Shown: positions 698 through 12,078 of the stretch, piece by piece | How the letters are laid out: every line of letters starts with the position of its first letter | How positions within the stretch are numbered: the first letter of the stretch is position 1 | From: a virus | DNA: 12,128 nucleotides | Direction: 5' to 3' (one strand) | Virus genome (UHGV): UHGV-0067634 | The notes under the pieces: generated by a model | The model's database searches: none | What the model was told of the DNA's origin: nothing | What the model saw: the letters and a program-made list of their open reading frames with translations, nothing else | Translations under genes and position numbers: made by a program

Positions 698-1846
698 ATG
701 ACTAACCAGTTTGCCATTACCATTGCTATATCCTGCTTCGTGATTGCGATGGTGATCTTCAGTTTGCCAGTCTTCAAATTCCTGGACGAAGAGGCTCAAC
801 CAAAGAGAACGAACAGTCTTGATGGGATGAGATTTATTCTTGCATCATTGGTAATATTTCATCACATGGACTGTTTTTATTCTTACTATACCACAGGTAA
901 ATGGGAGCCAGTTTCCTACTTTCTTTTCGCTGCCGGAAAGTATGGCGTTGCACTTTTTTTTATGACTACAGCTTACCTTTTTTGGGGCAAGGTAAGGATA
1001 AAAGATAGTGTTGATTGGGTTTCACTCTACAGAGGACGGTTTTTCAGGATTATCCCTTTAGCTGTATTCGCATCATTTGTCGCTATAATTTCATTGTTTA
1101 TTTTCACTAAGCCGTTCCCTCTGTATAACACCCCAATTTCAAATATATTTTCTTGGTTCGATGGTAGCTTATGGGATCACAAACCACCAGTAACAACGAT
1201 GCAGCGTCCAACTATAGCTTTGGCGGGTGTAACCTGGACTTTAAGATGGGAGTGGATGTTTTATTTTACTCTCCCTGCACTCTTTTTCTTTAGGAAACTT
1301 TCTTTTGAAATTTCAATAATTTTATTAGCATTTTCAATTTACCTCATGCCAAGCATAACCAAAGATGCATATCTTTGGTCATTTTTCTTCGCAGGAATGG
1401 TTTGCAGAGAGTTAAAGGAAAGAGTTTATATAACTGAGTCAAATGCAGAGTGGTTTTTATTAGCATCAATAATCCTCATCATAGTTGTCGACCCCACACT
1501 ATTTCGTGTTCCCGGAACGATATTCCTTGCCTTTATATTTTTCTCAATTTTGTCTGGAGGTAGCCTCTTTGGTTTACTCAAAACAAGAGCAGCTATTAGG
1601 CTTGGAACTATAAGTTATAGTCTATATATCACTCAAGGTTTAATTTTATTCCCTGCATACAACCTGTATATAAAAGAGTTTACGTTAAATCTTGATAGTT
1701 CATATTTTATATTCCTTTGCATGTCATACGCTGCCATTTGTTTTTTATCAGCAACAACCTATCATTTCATTGAGCTTCCTTTTATGAAAATAGGAGGTAG
1801 GAAAAGCACTAAGAAGCTAAACCAAGCCAATGTCTTAGATAAATGA
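698..1846 (+). CDS. Acyltransferase family 3 integral membrane protein, putative O-antigen O-acetyltransferase (serotype conversion)
   Basis: 382-aa ORF, hydrophobic throughout. Motif R-x3-LDGMRFILASLVIFHH resembles the acyltransferase-3 signature (R..LDGLRGIA....H) of Oac/OafA-type proteins. Sits in the slot between tailspike and phage end where P22 has gtrABC and Sf6 has oac. Visibly AT-rich versus the structural genes. The motif is preceded by a ~36-aa hydrophobic extension, so the true start is uncertain. Confidence 0.75.
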   Translation: MTNQFAITIAISCFVIAMVIFSLPVFKFLDEEAQPKRTNSLDGMRFILASLVIFHHMDCFYSYYTTGKWEPVSYFLFAAGKYGVALFFMTTAYLFWGKVRIKDSVDWVSLYRGRFFRIIPLAVFASFVAIISLFIFTKPFPLYNTPISNIFSWFDGSLWDHKPPVTTMQRPTIALAGVTWTLRWEWMFYFTLPALFFFRKLSFEISIILLAFSIYLMPSITKDAYLWSFFFAGMVCRELKERVYITESNAEWFLLASIILIIVVDPTLFRVPGTIFLAFIFFSILSGGSLFGLLKTRAAIRLGTISYSLYITQGLILFPAYNLYIKEFTLNLDSSYFIFLCMSYAAICFLSATTYHFIELPFMKIGGRKSTKKLNQANVLDK

Positions 1847-1887: not shown

Positions 1888-3861
1888 TTAGTTAAGGACC
1901 GTCCAGTCAGAACTATTTAACCCGTGCGATTTCCACCATTTGCTTGTCCCTGGAAGCCATACCTCTTGACCAATAAATCGAGGTGTCACGTTACCAACAG
2001 GAGTGCTCATTCCGGCACTTGTAACAACATATCCATATTTTGCTGGGCCTGTTCCATTATTAAGGATTGTATCCTTTGTTATGCCTGTTGCCCCATTGTA
2101 CCATTCCAAATCACTACCGCTAGCACCGCTAATAAAGTCAGGCATAAAGTGTGAAAATGAATTATTGGCATCCACTCTGGCACCATTGTAAGCCATATAA
2201 CCGCTAGCTTGAGTATTACTCCATCTCCCTCCTTTTACACTACCAGCAGATGAAGAGAAAAATCTTGCCGCATATCTTGCAAAACCGGCTATATTTATAT
2301 TATTCAATTCATAACCAGAAAGAGACGCAATTGACATACCATCATTATTAGGAATACCTGATGCTATTTGTGGGTTTGATGCATATCCTGTTAATGTGGC
2401 TCCGTTAATATATATCCCTGTGCTTGGCCCAGTCTCTGATGTGTATATTCCAACTCCAGAACAGTTAAAAACTTGAAGATCTGTGATTCTAACATTTCTG
2501 GCATAATGAAAGCTCAAGCCTCGCTCAGCTGGTGAATAGGTCTCGCGCATAGGATATCCGACATCACGCAAGCGAACTCCGTTAATGCTAATGTTGCTCG
2601 GATTCATACCTGGTGTTACTGACTCAAAACCTTCAAATGTAATGCCATTACCAACATTGATTCCCACTACATTACTGACGTGAATATCTGAGACATACCT
2701 TTTAAATCCGATAACTCCATGGGCACAATTACGACCAACAACGTTGGTGATAATGCAATTACGCGTGCCTCCAGGCTCCCCTGCAGAACAATAAATTCCT
2801 AAATCCCGACAATTCTCTACGAGAAGACCGTCAATGACGGAATCTGTAGCGCTTGCATACATCAGGCATGAATCAGGCGCATTAACAAGTTCAACATTTT
2901 TTAGTGTGCAACGTGCTCCACCAAAAGTAAGGATATCAGCTACAGCATAAAGCTTGTTGTTTTCTTGATTACCATCAATGCGTAAATCACGTATATGAAC
3001 ATCATTAGCCCCCATGTTGTGAACAAGGTAGTAGGCCTGTGTTTTATCAACACAAATATCATCCGCAAATTTAAGCCATCCCCCAGCACCGATAAGTATT
3101 GTTTTCTCCTTGATCTGTAATCCAGTAAATATCCATGGATCTCCATCTTTATTCTTTGGAGTAATCTTTATTGCACAGTAACCAGGAACAGATCCAGAAT
3201 AATCAAGTGCTGCCTGTAGCGTCTGCTGATCTGTCATGCTACCAAACATAAAAGAACGCACATCAATACAGTCATCAACCTGTAATTCCAATTGTAGGCC
3301 ATCAGAACGGTCAACAATGACAATACCATCTGCAGTAATACCCGTATTTGGAGTTACTGAGTACTTATTATAACTCCCGGCAGAGTTTTTAACCGCCACC
3401 AAGCGTCCTTCAACAGTTGTGTTTATTGTCAGATCAGTCTGGTTATCCAACTCCATGGCAATGCCGCCAATAAGAGCGGCCCCTTCAGGCTGTGATAGTT
3501 TGTTTTTAAATGTGTCTAATGCTTGATCTGGGTCATACTTAAGAACGTCAGGAAAGTAATGCTGTTGCACCATATATGAATCATATACAGCCATACTATA
3601 ATTCTGTGTAGTAAGAAACTTACATATCTGCCCGTTGTGAACAGGGTAGCCACCAGAATTAATTATTATTGGCTGAGAAACCGGAACAGGAGTGCCATTC
3701 TCACCTTCAATATATACCTGAATTTGGTTTGAAGGTGATGTTGGATCTGTATCAGGTAATCCTATAAACATTTTGCCATTGGCTACGGCTTTAAAAGAGC
3801 GAGCCATAGTGAAGAGTTGCGATGGCATGCTTACCACAACATTGGCTGTGATGTTTGTCAT
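1888..3861 (-). CDS. Tailspike protein: P22 gp9-like N-terminal head-binding domain fused to a different beta-helix receptor-binding domain
   Basis: 657-aa ORF. The first ~110 aa (MTNITANVVVS...RSFKAVANGK...VLKYDPDQ) align by eye with the P22 tailspike head-binding domain as I recall it. The remainder is Gly/Asn/Ser/Thr/Val-rich like a right-handed beta-helix but does not resemble the P22 endorhamnosidase domain. RBS AGGA 7 nt upstream of the ATG at 3859..3861. Confidence 0.9.
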   Translation of the reverse strand: MTNITANVVVSMPSQLFTMARSFKAVANGKMFIGLPDTDPTSPSNQIQVYIEGENGTPVPVSQPIIINSGGYPVHNGQICKFLTTQNYSMAVYDSYMVQQHYFPDVLKYDPDQALDTFKNKLSQPEGAALIGGIAMELDNQTDLTINTTVEGRLVAVKNSAGSYNKYSVTPNTGITADGIVIVDRSDGLQLELQVDDCIDVRSFMFGSMTDQQTLQAALDYSGSVPGYCAIKITPKNKDGDPWIFTGLQIKEKTILIGAGGWLKFADDICVDKTQAYYLVHNMGANDVHIRDLRIDGNQENNKLYAVADILTFGGARCTLKNVELVNAPDSCLMYASATDSVIDGLLVENCRDLGIYCSAGEPGGTRNCIITNVVGRNCAHGVIGFKRYVSDIHVSNVVGINVGNGITFEGFESVTPGMNPSNISINGVRLRDVGYPMRETYSPAERGLSFHYARNVRITDLQVFNCSGVGIYTSETGPSTGIYINGATLTGYASNPQIASGIPNNDGMSIASLSGYELNNINIAGFARYAARFFSSSAGSVKGGRWSNTQASGYMAYNGARVDANNSFSHFMPDFISGASGSDLEWYNGATGITKDTILNNGTGPAKYGYVVTSAGMSTPVGNVTPRFIGQEVWLPGTSKWWKSHGLNSSDWTVLN

Positions 3862-4256
3862 ATTAATTTCCTATCTGATTATTTATATATTAAATAAATT
3901 CGGATAGCAGCAGGCGAAAGATGAAAGTGTTAAAAAATAACCTTTCATTCATTTTATAGTTAACAATATAATTGTCTCTGCTAACATATAACACGCGAGC
4001 ACGCTGATCAACCGCCATATAACATGTGTACTTAACTAACTGTTTGCAAAAGAAAAAACAGACAACGAAAAGCATTAAGAAATAAAAAAACAAAATATAA
4101 AATTACCATTCAAATAAAATCATTGCTTTTCTTATTAATATTAACAGTGATACCAACAATGTTTATTTTCAAATCAAAACCTGTTTACAATATCTGTCAT
4201 TTAATTTGCTCCAGATACAAGGAATCGCCGCGGCATGGCTACGGTGAATTTTGGGC

Positions 4257-4283
4257 ATAAAAAAACCCAGCCGAAGCTGGGTT
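4257..4283 (-). terminator. Rho-independent terminator downstream of ant
   Basis: On the minus strand: stem AACCCAGC, loop TTCG, stem GCTGGGTT, followed by a run of 7 U. It starts about 17 bp after the ant stop codon (4301..4303). Confidence 0.75.
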
Positions 4284-4300
4284 GTTGCGTTGGTTATCTG

Positions 4301-5203
4301 TCAGTAGTTATGTACTGAAGGAGGCAATTCTTTATTCTTAAGTCTCATCCATGCGGAAAGATTCGTTGGTCCGTCTGGCTCATTGATATCAACATCTCGT
4401 GTGTGATTGATTAAAACGTCTCTCGCCATTCCGATAACATACGAGAACTCATGACCATAGTCGTAGCATCTGCCGGAATAGTTCGATTGAATTTGTTTTA
4501 ATGCCGGATACAGTTCACGGAATAATGCCTGTGAACGGTTGGCATAATCCCATAACCATACAAGGCTGTTTGCTTCTTTTGCAGAAAGCTCGTTGGTTTT
4601 CTTCTCTTGTTTGCCAATGAACTCACCTTCAAGCACTACCCTGTGGATGTACTCTACGGCTTTCGGTATCTGAGATGCATCAAGCTCTTCAATACTTTCC
4701 ACATTGAAATGCTGATGAATCATTGCATAAGCTTCTGGGTACATTAGATGCTTTTTGCTGACCAGCATATTTACAGCATCACGAAGCGGAGTCCTGTCAT
4801 CAACAGATGTTTTCTTACGTGCATTTTCTGCCTTTCCCTTCGTCCAGCAGTCATGCAGCACAGTAAAGCATTCTTCCTGGTACTGAATCAGTTTATCACG
4901 GATGTCAGCACGAACTTTCTCAGGGTTGATGCTGAACAGCCATCCATTTAACTTCTTCAAAGGAAGGCAGAGTAGCTTACGAAGCTTACCATCAGCGGCA
5001 ACCATGTTCATATGAACACAGTTGAATTTGCTAATCTGCTTCATGAGTTTTGTTTGCTGCGTTGACCAGCTCATTCCAAGGTTTTCAACGATTGGCTTCA
5101 TCGCAACATATGCAACTCCGGCAGCCATGGCGGTGATAATTTGCTGACCGTTGAATGGTACGTAAGAGGTGTTCACTGCTTCTAAAATTGCTATACTATT
5201 CAT
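4301..5203 (-). CDS. ant: Antirepressor Ant (immI region)
   Basis: 300-aa ORF directly downstream of arc in the same orientation, matching P22 immI gene order. The longer track ORF (to 5269) starts at TTG; the ATG at 5201..5203 ([10 protein letters not shown]...) has a GGAG RBS and gives the expected size. Product assigned by synteny and length, not by remembered sequence. Confidence 0.8.
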
Positions 5204-5271
5204 GTTGGTTTTTCTCCACGGATTTACTGACAAACGAAGCCCTGACTGTTCCCGCAGTTGGGGCTTCAACT
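5204..5271 (+). ncRNA. sar: Possible sar antisense RNA locus (arc-ant intercistronic region); ends not determined
   Basis: In P22 a ~68-nt antisense RNA is made from the arc-ant intercistronic region and pairs with the ant RBS. Here that region is 68 bp and holds a 13-bp imperfect hairpin (5235..5266, two G-U pairs). Promoter and 3' end could not be fixed from sequence. Confidence 0.3.
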
Positions 5272-5433
5272 TTACGCGCCAATGCGCCCTTCCTTCTTAA
5301 AGCTTTCCATTACTCTCTGATAAATCTCAGAGTTAACAGACCGACCATTCTCTTCCGCCACCTTGCGTACCAAATCCAATACTTCTTTAGGCCACCGCAA
5401 ATTGAACTGCGGCATTTTGCTCATTCCTTTCAT
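5272..5433 (-). CDS. arc: Arc repressor (ribbon-helix-helix)
   Basis: 53-aa product [53 protein letters not shown] matches P22 Arc as I recall it, apart from one Lys where I remember Arg16. Start set at the ATG at 5431..5433; the track's upstream extension is not real. Confidence 0.95.
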
Positions 5434-5448
5434 GTTCACCTCATAATA

Positions 5449-5467
5449 TAGGTCCACGGTGGACCTA
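5449..5467. promoter_or_regulatory. Mnt operator (Omnt), perfect palindrome TAGGTCCACGGTGGACCTA
   Basis: 19-bp perfect palindrome containing the 17-bp P22 Mnt operator core AGGTCCACGGTGGACCT. It overlaps the predicted Pant start site. Confidence 0.85.
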
Positions 5468-5496
5468 TTGAGAATATAGTAGAGTGCTTCTATCAT
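5468..5496 (+). promoter_or_regulatory. Pmnt promoter
   Basis: On the plus strand: -35 TTGAGA (5468..5473), 17-bp spacer, -10 TATCAT (5491..5496). GGAG RBS 7 nt before the mnt ATG. Overlaps Pant back-to-back, as described for P22 immI. Confidence 0.6.
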
Positions 5497-5501
5497 GTCA
5501 A
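5473..5501 (-). promoter_or_regulatory. Pant promoter (arc-ant operon)
   Basis: On the minus strand: -35 TTGACA (5496..5501), 17-bp spacer, -10 TATATT (5473..5478). Predicted start falls inside Omnt. Confidence 0.7.
5476..5496. promoter_or_regulatory. Arc operator (Oarc), ATAGTAGAGTGCTTCTATCAT
   Basis: Exact match to the 21-bp P22 arc operator as I recall it, lying between the -35 and -10 elements of both divergent promoters. Confidence 0.9.
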
Positions 5502-5523
5502 TACACTAACTTGGAGTGATGGC

Positions 5524-5775
5524 ATGGCTAGAGATGATCCGCACTTTAACTTCCGTATGCCTATGGAAGTAAGGGAGAAATTAAAATTCAGGGCGGAGGC
5601 GAATGGGAGATCAATGAACTCCGAGTTGTTACAAATCGTCCAAGATGCTCTATCAAAACCATCGCCTGTGACTGGATATCGTGACGATGCAGAACGACTC
5701 GCTGATGAGCAGTCAGATCTTGTTAAGAAGATGGTGTTTGATACGCTGAAGGATTTGTACAAAAAAACCACCTGA
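5524..5775 (+). CDS. mnt: Mnt repressor (ribbon-helix-helix)
   Basis: 83-aa product MARDDPHFNFRMPMEVREKLKFRAEANGRSMNSELLQIVQDALSKPSPVTGYR...KKMVFDTLKDLYKKTT is near-identical to P22 Mnt as I recall it. Divergent from arc across the operator region. Confidence 0.95.
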   Translation: MARDDPHFNFRMPMEVREKLKFRAEANGRSMNSELLQIVQDALSKPSPVTGYRDDAERLADEQSDLVKKMVFDTLKDLYKKTT

Positions 5776-5874
5776 CGGTGAGTTAATTTTTGCATTTACC
5801 TGGGCCATATTGACTACTTATAAAATGAGATCAATATTTAATCGCCCAATAACGGGTGTATGTTGAGGTATATC

Positions 5875-6054
5875 ATGGCGAAAAAACCAGGTGAAAACAC
5901 AGGAAAAAACGGCGGAATATACCAAGAAGTTGGCCCACGCGGCGGTAAGAAAGACAATTTTGCCACCGTCAAGGACAACGAAAGGCTTCCACCAACAACA
6001 AAGCCAGGTCATGGCTGGGTATTGGATAAGCGAACTCCAGACAGCAAAAAGTAA
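5875..6054 (+). CDS. Small Lys/Gly-rich hypothetical protein (59 aa), in the position of P22 orf59a
   Basis: ATG at 5875 with a GAGG RBS about 8 nt upstream. Product MAKKPGENTGKNGGIYQEVGPRGGKKDNFATVKDNERLPPTTKPGHGWVLDKRTPDSKK. Same strand as mnt and followed by a terminator. Length and position match what I recall of P22 orf59a; homology not verified. Confidence 0.55.
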   Translation: MAKKPGENTGKNGGIYQEVGPRGGKKDNFATVKDNERLPPTTKPGHGWVLDKRTPDSKK

Positions 6055-6059
6055 TAATC

Positions 6060-6082
6060 AAGCCGGGTCACTCCGGCTTTTT
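6060..6082 (+). terminator. Rho-independent terminator after the 59-aa ORF
   Basis: Stem AAGCCGG, loop GTCACT, stem CCGGCTT, then a T-run ending at 6082. The hairpin overlaps the last four codons (KKPE) of the convergent minus-strand ORF 6068..6433. Confidence 0.55.
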
Positions 6083-6433
6083 GATATGTCGCTCGCAGAA
6101 CTCAACAAGCCTGCTCATTAAGTAGCAGTAAGTCTCGTTGGCTCTTCCTGGTTCAACATCAACACCTACCCTTGAGCAGATATCGAATGCCATGTGAGCG
6201 CACTCATGGGCAATAGTAGATAGTTTGCCATTGAACACGCCTATCACATGCAAAACACCATTCTCGCTACTCATTGTATGAGACGCTCCGTTGGCGTCCG
6301 AGTCATGCACGTCAACGCCAAGTTTTTGATGCAGGCGTTGCCATTCTGGAAAGTCTCTACAAAACACAATTGTACCGCTCTCAAAGAGCGGTACGAGCAT
6401 CTTTGGTACGTTTCCAATGTTAACTTTTTTCAT
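6068..6433 (-). CDS. Hypothetical protein with HExxH zinc-metallopeptidase motif (possibly ImmA/IrrE-like)
   Basis: 121-aa ORF; ATG at 6431..6433 with AGGA 4 nt upstream. Motif IAHECAHMAF, followed 14 residues later by E-PGR-AN-ETYCYLM, which resembles the HExxH...E..AN.FA..LL pattern of M78-type peptidases. A perfect TATAAT sits upstream on the minus strand (plus coordinates 6463..6468). Confidence 0.55.
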   Translation of the reverse strand: MKKVNIGNVPKMLVPLFESGTIVFCRDFPEWQRLHQKLGVDVHDSDANGASHTMSSENGVLHVIGVFNGKLSTIAHECAHMAFDICSRVGVDVEPGRANETYCYLMSRLVEFCERHIKKPE

Positions 6434-6467
6434 GGTATCCTGCGCAAAACTAAGGAGAGTTAATTAT

Positions 6468-6953
6468 ATGAAAAAATCACTGTTAATTATCCCGCTTCTG
6501 CTGGCTGGGTGCGCAAAAGTAAGCGACTATCAGGCAAGTTGCGAGCAACGCTATCCAAAGCTTAGCGATATGGCTAATTGCCTTGATGCCAGCTTGAAGA
6601 ACGACTCTCGCATGGCATCAGCACCAACACCTAAGCTGTATGTCCTTGCTGCGAAGATGCTCGGGCAAGGTGTCGATGAAGGCAAGATAAGTGACACACA
6701 GGCAAGACTTGAACTTCAGAATCTTTATGTTCAATTACAAAGCCAAGAACAAGCACAACAAATAGCACAAAGCCAAGCATTCCAGCAGGCTTTATTGAAT
6801 TATCAGGCTGTAAACACAATGCAAGCGATCGAGCAAAAAGCGCGCCAGCCTGTTATAACTCAACCTTACCCAACACGCGTTGACACATATACAAACTGCA
6901 ATTCAGGATTTGGAAACACGGTAACATGCAACAGTAGCAGTAATATCAGATAG
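6468..6953 (+). CDS. Putative lipoprotein (161 aa) with Gln-rich predicted coiled region; candidate superinfection-exclusion or moron protein
   Basis: ATG at 6468 with a strong AAGGAGAG RBS. N-terminus MKKSLLIIPLLLAGC is a lipoprotein signal peptide with lipobox LAGC, and Ala at +2 suggests outer-membrane sorting. Central Q/A/L-rich segment; two Cys pairs flank it. Occupies the gene16-proximal slot where P22 carries sieA; homology to SieA not established. Confidence 0.7.
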   Translation: MKKSLLIIPLLLAGCAKVSDYQASCEQRYPKLSDMANCLDASLKNDSRMASAPTPKLYVLAAKMLGQGVDEGKISDTQARLELQNLYVQLQSQEQAQQIAQSQAFQQALLNYQAVNTMQAIEQKARQPVITQPYPTRVDTYTNCNSGFGNTVTCNSSSNIR

Positions 6954-6966
6954 TTATATCTTATTT

Positions 6967-8814
6967 TTATTGCTGTTCTGCTGTAATTTGGCTTGAAAGT
7001 ATAGGGCGTATCGCATTTGCAGCATTATTTAGCGCTCTTTCATAGGCTGGTGTTCCTGCTTTGGTGTTTGCCAAACGTAAGAGAGCATTCCTTGCTGCTT
7101 TTGACTCATACAAGCGCATCATTGCACCGAAACCAGCCTCAAGCCCCATTGATACGCCAAGAGTCGTAGTTGCGCCAATCGTCCTTATCCTGTTGGCTTG
7201 CGATTGCCCCGTCTGAGTTACTACATTTGCGGTGTCTGATCTTGCTGTTTGCTGTAGAACTTCATGAAGAGCATCAAGTTCTTTCATGTGCTTTCCAGAA
7301 AAAATAGTGTTGTAAATTTCACCGCCTGACTGAGATTTCAGCTTATTAACTTCCGTGATGAACTTGGCTGGAGAGTCACCGGCCTTTTCCGCTATTTTGC
7401 TGACGTAAGCTGCACGCATAGCATCTTTCCCTTTATCATCCAATGCGCTCCAGATTCGTTTCACGTCAGATGGTTTTCTGCTTAATACAACAGTATTTAT
7501 AAGTTCAGGACTGGCTTCACTGCTTGCCTTGTTGAGCTTGTTAGCAATGTTTTTATTAAGCACCTTATTATAAACGTTTGCATAATCGGAATTTGCTTTA
7601 AGGTATTTTGCTGCGTCTGATGCACCGAGGTTTTTTGCAACTGCGTTACGAAGGTCTTTTGACATTGCATTCTCTACCATATTGGTAGCTGCTTTTGCCT
7701 GGTTGGGGAAGACCATAGCATCCCCCTGAACATTAGATCTAAATGCTGTTCTGTGCTGACGTAGGAGATCAAACGTAACATCCAAATCAGTTGCAGGGTT
7801 TGCTAATTCTTCACGTAGGTTACGCAAGGATGTAAGCAGGCTTTGATTGGCAGACGTCCCAAGCCGTTCCTGTCTTGCGATCGCTGTATTCAGAGCATTC
7901 ATGGTATTTGTGGTATCAACTGCGGCATTACCCATTTTATTGGTGACGTCATTGATAACAGCGCCAGCGGCATCCTTCCGTCCCCTTAACGTGGTGGTCA
8001 GAGATTTCACCACATCATCAGGGTTGTACTCACCAAAACGGTCAAAATAATTGCTTACCAGCTTACTACGCGTTGCATATTGCTCCGCTCGCTTTGAGCC
8101 TGTCCCGAGCAAAGCCCCCTCAGCATCCTGAGTAAGTCCGCGAGTGAAAGCATTTTTCGGCGGGATAACATCAGATGTCATTGGTGTCACGCCCATCGAT
8201 TCTGAGGTGGCAATTTTTTTCGCTACTTCTGGCGCGATATCGCCTTTTATAGCAGTTATTCCACGCCCTATTCCCTTTGCTGCTGCGGAAAGAACACCCT
8301 GAGCGGCAAGGTTAACTCCGGCGTTTATGGCTGCATTTTGCGCGAAATCGCCTTTCTGGTTCGCGGCTTCTGCCAGTGATCCAATAGCCATGCTTCCTGC
8401 CGTTCCAACTCCTGGAACTAAATACCCGCCAATTGTTTCTCCAGCTTGAGCGTAGGGGTCTGTCGGTCGATCGACTGGACGATAGACATCATCCAAAACC
8501 TTGGGGCCACCAAGCCCCTGACTGATTGCATTAATCAGACTTGCGCCGCCCTGTAATACGTCAAATGGTATGTTTACCAGACCACGACCAGCCTGTTCTG
8601 CAATTTGCCCTGCACTTTGACCACCAGTGAGCCAATCGCCAGCTTGTTGCATCAATGATGGTTCTTCCCGTGTTGGTGCATTATTGGCCTGATTAACTAT
8701 TTGTTGCTGAACAGCCTGACCAGCAAAATACTCATCAATGGCGGTGCCAATATCTTCGGTGCCCGTACCATCAGGAAAGGTAAATGTCTTACCGTTTGCA
8801 GTTACTTTCATCAT
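6967..8814 (-). CDS. Ejection (E) protein, P22 gp16-like
   Basis: 615-aa ORF, last gene of the 26-14-7-20-16 block. Start ATG overlaps the gp20 stop (ATGA at 8811..8814). Assigned by position, size and order in a P22-like context. Confidence 0.8.
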
Positions 8815-10217
8815 TCCACCGTAAATTGAATGCCTGATTTTGAGGTATATGATCCAACCTGATTCCGTGGTTCTCCTGAAGGTGTCGAATCTTGTGCTGG
8901 CGCTGCGTCAGTATTCATTGACATATACCGCTTAACGGCACTCCCCAATGATTCACCTTTTTTAACATCCAACCCCAATATCTGACCGCCATTACGCGAT
9001 TGTCCAGGGTTGCCATTCGCGCTCATCCACTCGGCTTTAAACTCATTAAACTGCGCGTTTCGTCGCTCAAGGTTTGCCATTGCATCAAGCCATCTTGCGA
9101 CCGTCTCAGGGTTATCCATGTCAGTTGGCGCACCCTGTCGAACGATCTCAACGTCTTTATCCGTTGCTGGGCCGGGAGGTAGGAATTTAAGAACCTGACT
9201 GTTAACAAGGGCATTTTGGCGAATGCGCAAATCACGCAATGTTGTATCGCTTCCGGTAAGTTTTGCGAACATGTTCTGTGCGTTACCGAACAAACCTGTC
9301 GTTGGTTTTTCTGCTCTGAACTGTTGAGCAAGCGCACTCATAGAATTGGCTGAGTTTGATGATGCTGTAGCATTGTTTACAGCCGTCTCGATGCCTTTTT
9401 CCATGTTTACTGACAGCTTAGGTGCTTCGCTAATCAACTGCTGAGCCTTTTCCTGCGCTTGCTGCATCTTAAACCCGAACTCTTGCTGATCCAGAGCCAA
9501 GCGTTGTGCTGCGATATTGTGCCCAGTCATTGCTGACTGATAGGAAAGGTTTTGCCCTCTCGCCTGAAGTGCTTCTCCAGCCTGATTGCTACGGATTGTC
9601 TCTGCCAGCCTGCCTCGGTCAATTTCACGACCAGCCATCTTGTCCTGAACATTGAAGTAGTCAATCGGACCGAGAGCAGCCATCCCAAGGTGATCAACAA
9701 ACTCACCAAATCCTGAAGGATTCTGCTGATACATCTGAGCAACGCTGTTAGGGTCAACACCGACGCGAGTCAGTTCCTTGGCGTTGTTTTGCAGCCATGA
9801 TTGCATTGCTTCTGGAGACGATGACGCAAGGCGTGCGCCAGCCGCTAAGGTGCCGATAGAATTACGCTGCTCTTCATCAATGAATCCCATGCCTTTACGA
9901 ACAGATTCAATCTGGTCTGGATATTGAGTAGCCAACTGACGCAAAGCACCGCGATCACCAGACGCATAAGCATTAGCGTATGCCTGCTGAAATTCTTTCT
10001 GCCGCTGAGCCTGCTTTTCCTGCTGAAAAACACCCGCAATACCTGAAAGACCTTGCAAAGCAGTCAGCCCAACATTTTTAGCGCCTGAACGCTCAATATC
10101 ATTGTTCTGCCTGATAAGCTGAAGCGTATTGCCGATGTCATTTACGTTAGGAGCGTTTGAGTTGACGCCACCGATACCAGCCAACAATCCGCCATTTGAT
10201 CCTTGCCAAGTAGCCAT
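8811..10217 (-). CDS. Ejection (E) protein, P22 gp20-like
   Basis: 468-aa ORF. AGGGG RBS 6 nt before the ATG at 10215..10217. Position and size fit gp20 between gp7 and gp16. Confidence 0.8.
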
Positions 10218-10226
10218 GATTACCCC

Positions 10227-10919
10227 TTAAAACAACGAGCCAAGCAATCCGATACCAGCGCCAATGCCAGCCCCCCACGGTGTTGATGTTCCAAGAAGGC
10301 TGGCAAGACCTGCACCGGCAATCGCACCAGACGTGCCGCCGCTAATTGCTGTCTGAAGACTTGATGGTTTATTGGCATTAGCAGCGGCAAGTGCTGCGCT
10401 TTGCTGTGCAATGCTGCTCATGTTGTTGGCGTATGTCTGCCCGGCGTTCGCCTGACCTTGCAGCGCACCAAGGCCAATGTTTGCCAGATTGTTGTAGTTG
10501 CTCATCTGGTTTGATAACCAAGACTGACCGAGAGTCGGCGCGATCGTAGCCAGTTGATTGCTTGTGGCTGTCGAACCAAGTCCTCCCGTAGCCTCCGCAG
10601 CAGCAAGACTCTGGTAACGAGCCTGACCTGCAAGGTCTTTATACTGCTGAGAGTTGTAATACTGATTAAGTGCCTGACCCTGTCCTTCTAAACTGGAAAG
10701 GTTCTGAAGCTGGTTAACATACTGCTCCGCAAGCGGCGTGAACGGAGCAAGGTTTTTCATGATTGTCTGCCACTGCTGATTTTGCAGGTCTGCGGCATAC
10801 TTCTGAGCTTCTGCTGCATACTTTGCGCTTTTATCAGAGCTGCCACCTTTCCCGCCTTTTTCAGGGCAATAAGGTTCCTCGCCGCGCAGTTTTCTGCCCA
10901 GCTTAAATGCATATAACAT
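10227..10919 (-). CDS. Ejection (E) protein, P22 gp7-like
   Basis: 230-aa ORF with AGGAG RBS. N-terminus MLYAFKLGRKLRGEE... and a Gly/Ala-rich hydrophobic C-terminal tail (…GAGIGAGIGLLGSLF) fit a membrane-inserting ejection protein. Confidence 0.8.
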   Translation of the reverse strand: MLYAFKLGRKLRGEEPYCPEKGGKGGSSDKSAKYAAEAQKYAADLQNQQWQTIMKNLAPFTPLAEQYVNQLQNLSSLEGQGQALNQYYNSQQYKDLAGQARYQSLAAAEATGGLGSTATSNQLATIAPTLGQSWLSNQMSNYNNLANIGLGALQGQANAGQTYANNMSSIAQQSAALAAANANKPSSLQTAISGGTSGAIAGAGLASLLGTSTPWGAGIGAGIGLLGSLF

Positions 10920-10921
10920 GG

Positions 10922-11377
10922 CTATCTCCTGTGATTCAGGAAGTCGATTAGTTCTTCGCGTGTGGCGCTGTAAAACGTCACGTCATCCACGCCTTTGAAG
11001 TATTTCTTGATGGTTCCTACACGCTTAAGGCCAATCATTGCGCAGTACATCTGCCCGTGGCGGAATTTGCGTGCAGCGAACGATGTGACGCACTGAACGG
11101 TGGTGTTAGTCAGAATGTATCGCCAGAACGCCAGCCCGATTTCCTTGCTGAATCCACGAACCTCTGGCAGGTACATGGCGTGGCAATCGAATGTCAGCGG
11201 CTGAATCTCCTGATAGTAAACAATGCCGCCGAACTGCCCGTGCACGTTCACCTCAAAGTAACGGCAATCAGGTTTGTAGTCGTATCCATCACCGTTGTTG
11301 CTCCCGGCAATAATGTCAGGGTAATTTCCTACTGCCTCTATCAGGTCGATGTTTCGCGTTGGTTTGAATGTAATCAT
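10922..11377 (-). CDS. P22 gp14-like virion assembly protein (assigned by position)
   Basis: 151-aa ORF between the gp26 and gp7 genes. Its start overlaps the gp26 stop (ATGA at 11375..11379). Function inferred from synteny only. Confidence 0.6.
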   Translation of the reverse strand: MITFKPTRNIDLIEAVGNYPDIIAGSNNGDGYDYKPDCRYFEVNVHGQFGGIVYYQEIQPLTFDCHAMYLPEVRGFSKEIGLAFWRYILTNTTVQCVTSFAARKFRHGQMYCAMIGLKRVGTIKKYFKGVDDVTFYSATREELIDFLNHRR

Positions 11378-12078
11378 CAGTCAATCAGCCCATGTAATCT
11401 AAGTGCTGTTTCAAGCGCCAGAATACGCTGCCGCGCCTGCTGCAAACCTGTAGCGAGAGCTGCGACTTCGGATTGTGTGTACGTAGTGCCGACCGTGTAT
11501 GACTGGTTAGCGTTGAATGAGCCAAGAAGTGGCGTACCTGTGGCTGCAGTCCATCCGGTATTTCTTGCTCCAACAACCTGAATTCCATCAACTGAATATG
11601 ATGTTTTTACATTCAGTGGTGACGCAAGAGACTGCGATTCGGTTACGGTTTTCGATACGTAATCACTCTTAATGTCAGATACATCGCTTTCTACGCCCTC
11701 CAGTCTTTTGTCAACAGTGACAAGATGCGCCTGAATATCGATAACCTCATCCAGCAAGTAATCAACATCGCTACGCAGTACGACTATCTTCCCTTCGGCG
11801 GTTGTTAACCTGACCTCAAGGAGATTTATCGCTTTTGTGTTTGCGGTGATTCTTGCATCGTGGTCATCGAGAATCACATCCTGCTCATCGTTCCTGACTT
11901 GTGCGTCATAAGCTCCCTGTCCGGCCTCGTTGGCCTTGTTAGCCACGTTACCAACATCAGTACCCTGTGCGATAACGTACAGCAGATATGACTGCGAGAA
12001 GATATTGCGTGGAAGGACTGATGTGTCGAGTCGTGTAGCCTGAATGATTACCGGCTCATTGAGATTCGAATCAGCCAT
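11377..12078 (-). CDS. Tail needle protein, P22 gp26-like
   Basis: 233-aa [21 protein letters not shown]...[14 protein letters not shown]-terminal region and length fit P22 gp26 as I recall it. AGGA RBS 7 nt upstream. Confidence 0.85.

Follow-up and report, generated by a model that had tools for sequence, protein, structure and literature searches.

A predicted lipoprotein gene carried as moron cargo in the sieA slot of P22-like prophages

Introduction

SieA of phage P22 is an inner-membrane protein with several transmembrane helices (PMC10883804). Types A, B, and C are distinguished (family phrog_7745), and Leavitt et al. (2024; PMC10883804) found that upstream DNA of 85 bp in P22, or 106 bp in HS1, suffices for the exclusion function of sieA. 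The interval between genes 16 and 9 in which sieA lies is described by Villafane, Casjens et al. (2008; PMC2629481) as a rapidly changing "ant moron" holding mnt, arc, ant, sieA, and assorted genes to which no function has been assigned; the text consulted mentions no lipoprotein.

The other systems with which our locus can be compared involve lipoproteins. Cor (of N15, phi80, and HK022) and Llp (of T5) are phage lipoproteins that have a lipobox, are predicted to reside in the outer membrane, are encoded at moron-like positions beside tail or entry genes, and block FhuA. T5 Llp is a small protein. In Streptococcus phage TP-J34, the lipoprotein Ltp binds the tape measure protein and thereby prevents injection of DNA. 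Among P22-like phages, Sf6 uses OmpA and OmpC as secondary receptors.

Here we examine a gene in a 12,128-nucleotide stretch of virus genome UHGV-0067634 (the window). A preliminary description, made from the letters of the window, had read it as a lipoprotein gene at the position where P22 carries sieA. We found that the gene is prophage moron cargo in the expression socket of P22 sieA, within the region known as the ant moron in P22-like phages. From this position, we infer that the lipoprotein probably acts in the cell envelope, where its action is most plausibly directed against incoming phages.

Results

The lipoprotein gene lies at the end of a P22-like late region

Read in reverse orientation, the window comes from a P22-like (Lederbergvirus) prophage, of whose late region it covers the right end. 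Its features are as follows.

698-1846, plus strand: membrane protein of the Acyl_transf_3 family (E 4e-21), directly downstream of the tailspike gene
1888-3861, minus strand: tailspike with a P22 head-binding domain
4301-5775: Ant, Arc, and Mnt genes
5524-5775, plus strand: mnt repressor gene (Pfam Arc and Repressor_Mnt; P22 annotation), in the orientation of the lipoprotein gene
5860-6054, plus strand: orf59a-like gene
6060-6079, bidirectional: terminator-like hairpin between orf59a and the 121-aa open reading frame (ORF), corresponding to the P22 mnt terminator
6068-6433, minus strand: 121-aa ORF with an HExxH motif (IAHECAHMAF), phrog_1365, divergent from the lipoprotein gene
6372-6394, minus strand: terminator-like hairpin within the 5' part of the 121-aa ORF
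6403-6433, plus strand: stretch matching the annotated (putative) P22 PsieA (AF527608, "P sieA," 13861-13891), mapped via a 98%-identical match
6436-6457, plus strand: cargo leader TATCCTG-CGC-AAAACTAAGGAG, with a possible -10 element TATCCT (6436-6441) and a Shine-Dalgarno sequence (6451-6457)
6468-6953, plus strand: lipoprotein gene, 161 codons plus stop, phrog_6067
6967-8814, minus strand: homolog of ejection protein gp16 (phrog_770, E 6e-279)
6967-12078, minus strand: ejection proteins gp16, gp20, and gp7, then gp14 and the needle gp26

The late operon is transcribed in the direction opposite to the lipoprotein gene; mnt, which belongs to the ant moron and is expressed from the prophage, has the orientation of the lipoprotein gene. 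It is convergent with the gp16 gene, with 13 nt between the two stop codons, and this arrangement is kept in every related locus. Seven complete E. coli chromosomes, such as that of strain Ecol_881, carry an identical lipoprotein coding sequence; there, the gene neighbors are the same and adjoin dacD and sbmC.

The 121-aa ORF on the other side is probably P22 hkcC; it is 98 to 99% conserved in P22 and relatives (99% in locus L083), and some P22 records leave it unannotated. Since the PsieA annotation and the start codon of this ORF overlap, the two divergent genes share part of their control regions.

An unrelated coding sequence takes the place of sieA

We compared window positions 5800-7000 with 50,697 phage records by megablast and found that similarity to P22 and its relatives (98% identity) was confined to positions 5800-6461. 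In P22-pbi (AF527608), the matching stretch holds orf59a, the mnt terminator, and "P sieA," and the sieA start codon falls at window position 6464. The 660 bp of 98% identity upstream of the lipoprotein gene include the annotated PsieA. A simple sigma-70 scan called no promoter at 6403-6433. In an alignment of the window with P22, VSe13, and Gally, all four have ...CTAAGGAG in common, and the similarity to P22 stops right after TAAGGAG, indicating that the sieA coding sequence was exchanged for an unrelated one of nearly equal length while the regulatory region was retained. The lipoprotein gene resembles sieA in lying between genes 16 and 9, in converging with the former, and in following the PsieA region and leader. 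The sieA position given in the preliminary description was therefore exactly right: the upstream region, PsieA, and the ribosome binding site are those of P22, and the coding sequence alone differs.

That description had also not recognized the product as P22 SieA, and our comparisons agree. BLASTP returned no alignment between the lipoprotein and SieA, hhalign gave a probability of 0.1%, and a scan of the PHROG families matched phrog_6067 alone and not the SieA family phrog_7745. The mature lipoprotein contains no hydrophobic or transmembrane helix and no FxRYPxEAxxFNK motif. SieA is polytopic in the inner membrane and carries this motif on its cytoplasmic side (PMC10883804), whereas the lipoprotein is predicted to have a cleaved signal peptide and periplasmic disulfides. 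What the two have in common is an identical slot, orientation, upstream region, and 22-nt leader, a similar length (161 versus 164 aa), and their nature as envelope proteins of P22-like prophages, which for the lipoprotein is a prediction.

The gene encodes a predicted lipoprotein and is under purifying selection

The lipoprotein gene has the following parts.

6468-6512, plus strand: signal peptide (residues 1-14) and lipid-modified Cys15 (predicted), with lipobox LAGC and Ala as the +2 residue
6519-6767, plus strand: N-terminal four-helix bundle, residues 18-100, with Cys25 and Cys38 (AlphaFold pLDDT 90-97)
6717-6848, plus strand: Gln-rich helical stalk, residues 84-127, with 15 Gln and both copies of CAAAGCCAAG (pLDDT falling from 92 to 66)
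6879-6947, plus strand: C-terminal beta-hairpin, residues 138-160, with Cys144 and Cys154 in the motif T-x-C-x3-G-x4-C

The signal peptide, MKKSLLIIPLLLAG, is predicted to be cleaved before Cys15 (codon TGC at 6510-6512). Read as MKK-SLLIIPLL-LAG-C15, it has the positively charged n-region, hydrophobic core, and lipobox ([LVI][ASTVI][GAS]C; here L12-A13-G14-C15) of an Lgt/LspA lipoprotein substrate, and at least 90% of 122 relatives, and likewise of the sequences in a 40-sequence alignment, retain Cys15. The Shine-Dalgarno sequence TAAGGAG (6451-6457) lies 10 nt 5' of the ATG. Cysteines occur at residues 15, 25, 38, 144, and 154. Cys25 and Cys38 are invariant among 122 family members, and Cys144 and Cys154, which presumably form a disulfide, are conserved at 90% or more in the 40-sequence alignment. 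The lipobox signal peptide, the strong ribosome binding site, and the cysteine pairs at both ends that the preliminary description had reported were thus all borne out. It had further described a Gln-rich, coiled-coil-like middle with a short repeat, and here its account held in part. The middle is Gln-rich (15 of the 44 residues at positions 84-127), but the coiled-coil label is not established, since heptad periodicity is weak (the best register has only 59% hydrophobic residues at a/d positions); in the AlphaFold model, residues 76-125 instead form a single long helix, an extension of the last bundle helix into the stalk. The 10-nt repeat CAAAGCCAAG does occur twice, at 6738-6747 and 6768-6777 with a spacing of 30 nt, but it merely reflects two Gln-Ser-Gln codon runs without significance of their own, and we rejected it as a functional element.

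An upstream ATG at 6417, which would give 178 aa and is chosen in some annotations, is unlikely to be the start, because aligned full-length homologs begin at MKK with few exceptions and the upstream sequence varies between loci. In the Gally record, the gene is annotated at 3971-4486 from an upstream start (171 aa); the homolog alignment favors the MKK that corresponds to window position 6468.

Compared with the Gally and VSe13 alleles, the gene shows strong purifying selection (dN/dS 0.037-0.047; dS 0.23-0.62, dN 0.011-0.023). We conclude that the lipoprotein gene is real and under selection.

Structure prediction with AlphaFold reached a pLDDT of 64 from 29 close homologs and 83 from a 122-sequence alignment (model m0341034c7fa8). 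The bundle region coincides with the conserved core of a wider family, most of whose 240 distant relatives match profile positions 1-100, and a Pro-rich linker joins the stalk to the C-terminal hairpin. No specific fold relative of the model was found.

A 22-nt leader marks a slot with interchangeable cargo

We used the gp7 of the window to fetch 80 IMG/VR loci and classified the gene 16-tailspike interval in the 65 whose interval was complete. The slot contents were as follows.

Empty (154-483 nt, with nothing or mnt alone): 32 of 65 loci
This lipoprotein (97-99% identical): 17 of 65 loci
SieA: 2 of 65 loci (type A in the first; in the second, a protein identical to HS1 type B, which has been validated by experiment)
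Lipoprotein and SieA together: 0 of 65 loci

Four alternative cargo genes took the place of the lipoprotein gene exactly, orientation included.

phrog_2651: 129-aa secreted Cys protein
phrog_10450: 106/130-aa protein with an N-terminal transmembrane helix
phrog_8100: 109-aa protein with a transmembrane helix and a predicted helical region
phrog_21338: 62-aa membrane protein

Every other slot occupant in the 65 loci was thus a small secreted or membrane protein. The phrog_2651 cargo, which has a signal peptide and a Cys near each end, is the first gene after gp16, on the minus strand, in L030, L035, L067, L069, and L072, and its frequency in E. coli (147 of 5426 genomes) comes close to that of the lipoprotein.

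The leader TATCCTG-N3-AAAACTAAGGAG (22 nt) precedes at least seven unrelated cargo ORFs, including SieA type A and HS1 type B, the HS1 sieA leader being a slightly divergent form. Loci with the leader include L021, L030, L035, L040, L046, L060, L067, L082, L083, and L086, among others; it was absent from all 32 empty slots, and the sequence farther upstream varies between loci. To judge from its letters, the leader may combine a -10 box with a Shine-Dalgarno site, and it is the junction where cargo is exchanged. The lipoprotein gene has the hallmarks of such socket cargo, being preceded by the leader, lying as the first gene past gene 16 on the opposite strand, and encoding a small exported product. 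In the literature, we found no description of the shared leader or of the signal-peptide or transmembrane nature of the cargo next to gene 16.

The gp16 versions beside the lipoprotein gene share 99%, 43%, 34%, and 32% identity with that of the window. Given these at least four very different neighbors, the lipoprotein is not tied to one ejection-protein type, and we rejected such a linkage. It is also dispensable for the phage, as it is missing from about half of otherwise near-identical prophages. Occupied slots were seen in phages and prophages of Escherichia, Salmonella, Proteus, Yersinia, and Morganella. The preliminary suggestion that a different envelope protein had been swapped into the sieA slot is supported by this context, namely the common leader and the lack of co-occurrence with SieA in the 65 loci.

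Other genes lie near the slot in some of these loci. L035, L072, L075, and L082 encode a further lipoprotein that is unrelated to the first (139-143 aa, MKRIIGVVAGAILLSGC..., phrog_6823, with a weak match to the PEGA domain). Its gene, on the plus strand of these loci, lies between mnt and the cargo gene and is transcribed in the direction of the late operon. Deeper in the L069 region, 430-765 nt past the gp16 stop on the minus strand, is a gene for a 111-aa secreted protein of the Rap1a type VI secretion system (T6SS) immunity family (PF18602, E 1e-14), which by its sequence looks like a prophage-borne orphan immunity gene.

Homologs are common in Enterobacterales and belong to a wider family

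The lipoprotein matches the phrog_6067 profile over its full length (E 2.9e-109, residues 1-161 on positions 1-161), a family without an annotated function. Profile searches of Pfam (E <= 1), NCBIfam, and the PDB sequence set gave no match, and none of the 5027 models of PADLOC-DB 2.0 matched at E <= 1. Of the proteins named in the preliminary description, SieA (by BLASTP and hhalign), Cor (by hhalign), and TraT (by Pfam) showed no homology; against N15 Cor, hhalign aligned only 22 signal-peptide and lipobox columns (probability 54%), and the Pfam families of TraT and lambda Bor/Iss (PF05818 and PF06291) were unmatched at E <= 1. Our literature search found no paper on this lipoprotein.

Only five sequenced phages carry the lipoprotein. 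The amino-acid identity is 96-98% in Gally, vB_EcoP-720R6, and VSe13 and approximately 54% in the other two, Proteus phage Brookers and Salmonella phage "MS2 LVA." A search of 5.8 billion proteins found 90 relatives of 153-162 aa; those with a named organism are all from Enterobacterales, and all are unnamed save one "lipoprotein" and one evident misannotation. The latter, P0023 from Cronobacter dublinensis (161 aa), is called "general secretion pathway protein GspK" at NCBI, almost certainly in error. Among 5426 complete E. coli genomes, the lipoprotein gene is present in 186, always on the chromosome, and the two SieA types together in 56. Carriers include human and animal isolates, among them an ST131 strain.

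A profile search of 1.84 billion representatives (E <= 0.001) revealed a wider proteobacterial lipoprotein family of 240 representatives, partly chromosomal and partly on other mobile elements. Most of its members are 125-140 aa long and have the first 100 residues as well as the C-terminal T-x-C-x3-G-x4-C hairpin in common; with the phage lipoprotein they share the lipobox, the Q-x2-C-E...C motif, the K-L-Y-x-L and D-A-R-x-E-L-Q-x-L-Y helices, and the hairpin, whereas they have a short linker where the phage lipoprotein has its Gln-rich stalk, which is approximately 35 residues longer than in the chromosomal relatives. No names and no Pfam family are attached to the wider family, and its short chromosomal branch was not found in IMG/VR. 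The contexts of the distant relatives are heterogeneous, ranging from ordinary chromosomal ones (housekeeping genes, an RND efflux operon) and a site adjoining a holE-like gene to integrase islands, phage-like genes, and assorted metagenomic neighborhoods, and no recurrent partner gene was seen near those sampled. The presence of relatives in ordinary chromosomal neighborhoods suggests that the ancestral role was probably a general envelope function.

One distant relative of 177 aa (P0136, in L097 and L098) is cargo on a small integrative element, where it adjoins a T5orf172/MUG113 gene. The element also encodes an integrase, AlpA, a DnaG-type zinc-ribbon protein (primase), and an AAA_25 protein, and it resembles a satellite-like island that gathers accessory genes.

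Discussion

Judging from context, we tentatively regard superinfection exclusion at the level of the envelope as the most likely function of the lipoprotein. Several observations argue for it: the exact replacement of sieA with its promoter region and Shine-Dalgarno sequence kept; a leader common to both validated SieA types and absent from empty slots; the sufficiency of 85 or 106 bp of upstream DNA for SieA function (PMC10883804); and the absence, among the 65 loci, of any with both lipoprotein and SieA, in a slot whose other occupants are all small secreted or membrane proteins. Occupation of the slot across five genera, the island cargo status of the P0136 homolog, and purifying selection together with presence in 186 of 5426 E. 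coli genomes point the same way, and the lipobox and conserved cysteine pairs are consistent with a periplasmic location. The lack of similarity to the exclusion and defense proteins that we searched argues against exclusion. An inhibitor specific for a phage protein is slightly disfavored, because the lipoprotein is highly conserved beside hypervariable ejection proteins and does not have the look of an arms race, and because distant relatives occur in ordinary chromosomal contexts.

We propose the following mechanism. By established rules, the product would be exported by Sec and lipidated at Cys15, and since its +2 residue is Ala rather than Asp, the Lol-avoidance rule predicts that the Lol system delivers it to the outer membrane, at the inner face. 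Both conserved cysteine pairs would be closed by DsbA, and the four-helix bundle would sit under the outer membrane, with the Gln-rich stalk and disulfide hairpin extending into the periplasm. The lipoprotein may be made in the lysogen, as the shared leader and the orientation of the gene suggest, although the lack of a clear sigma-70 promoter in a simple scan speaks against this. It could then exclude phages by disturbing penetration of the outer membrane or assembly of the trans-periplasmic conduit of gp7, gp20, and gp16, or by occupying a host component that the incoming phage needs, and would be the periplasmic counterpart of SieA action at the inner membrane. The ejection proteins are far more variable than the lipoprotein, so a conserved component of the host envelope, or of the phage tail tip, is a likelier direct partner for it than the variable parts of gp16 and gp20.

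Ltp offers a precedent by description, as a prophage lipoprotein outside the cytoplasmic membrane that can block DNA entry via the ejection apparatus, which is the kind of mechanism proposed here, although it acts in a Gram-positive host and is not known to have a related fold. The work on Ltp is among the references of PMC10883804.

Other functions would also fit a predicted outer-membrane lipoprotein encoded in a prophage slot. The lipoprotein could mask a receptor in the manner of Llp and Cor, binding the periplasmic side of an outer-membrane secondary receptor. The step blocked would then be irreversible adsorption or the triggering of DNA release, not the assembly of the conduit. High conservation across genera would suit a host partner that is itself conserved, and independence of the gp16 type also fits such masking, but homology to Cor ends with the signal peptide, no Llp-like family was matched in Pfam or the PHROGs, and a mature protein of 146 residues with a stalk is much larger than Cor (a 78-aa precursor in N15). 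The mature protein is about twice the size of those of Cor and Llp and is predicted to be built as a four-helix bundle with a stalk, and whereas Cor and Llp block FhuA, the phages that carry our lipoprotein adsorb to O-antigen via the tailspike. We consider receptor masking unlikely, while placing it ahead of the remaining rivals. Next in rank, and also improbable in our judgment, is lysogenic conversion that benefits host fitness or virulence (serum resistance or envelope robustness, as for lambda Bor, Iss, and TraT) with no anti-phage role. The frequency of the gene in human and animal E. coli, including an ST131 strain, and the general envelope role suggested by its chromosomal relatives would suit this, but the TraT and Bor Pfam families were unmatched and the only characterized cargo of the socket is an exclusion protein.

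We give still less credence to the idea that the gene is an orphan immunity gene whose periplasmic product protects against envelope-targeting toxins of competitors (T6SS peptidoglycan hydrolases or bacteriocins) or against attack by lysozyme or transglycosylase; in Pfam, the lipoprotein did not match the Rap1a T6SS immunity family PF18602. Least credible is a late or lysis function for the phage itself, in which the product would be o-spanin-like or would keep progeny from ejecting DNA into debris. Outer-membrane lipoproteins of the Rz1 type do act in lysis and the gene abuts the virion gene cluster, yet it is transcribed opposite to the late operon, outside the lysis cassette, and is dispensable, and both orientation and dispensability make this role unlikely; moreover, the protein is neither Pro-rich nor short like Rz1, and no partner i-spanin gene is present.

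If the lipoprotein excludes phages, this would explain resistance to P22-like phages in many lysogens of E. coli, Salmonella, Serratia, Klebsiella, Yersinia, and the Proteus group, with a bearing on phage therapy and transduction, and the protein would serve to probe, from the side of the outer membrane, how podovirus DNA passes through the periplasm, as a complement to SieA at the inner membrane. Of the occupants of the slot, only SieA has been studied, yet the lipoprotein is approximately three times as common as both SieA types together (186 versus 56 complete E. coli genomes). A bolder reading, which we hold as speculative and less probable than exclusion as such, is that the lipoprotein is the founding member of a new class of exclusion proteins that are anchored in the outer membrane and stop P22-like, and perhaps other, phages in the periplasm. 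Under this reading, the leader would be a cassette-exchange socket that shuffles at least seven unrelated envelope-defense genes, SieA being the sole one studied, and the chromosomal family would be a pool from which mobile elements recruit time and again. The leader TATCCTG-N3-AAAACTAAGGAG provides a sequence handle with which further candidate envelope-defense genes may be harvested from prophages.

The window also contains the Acyl_transf_3 gene at 698-1846, whose product is likely an O-antigen acetyltransferase for serotype conversion and would be a second prophage function, one that blocks the adsorption of related phages.
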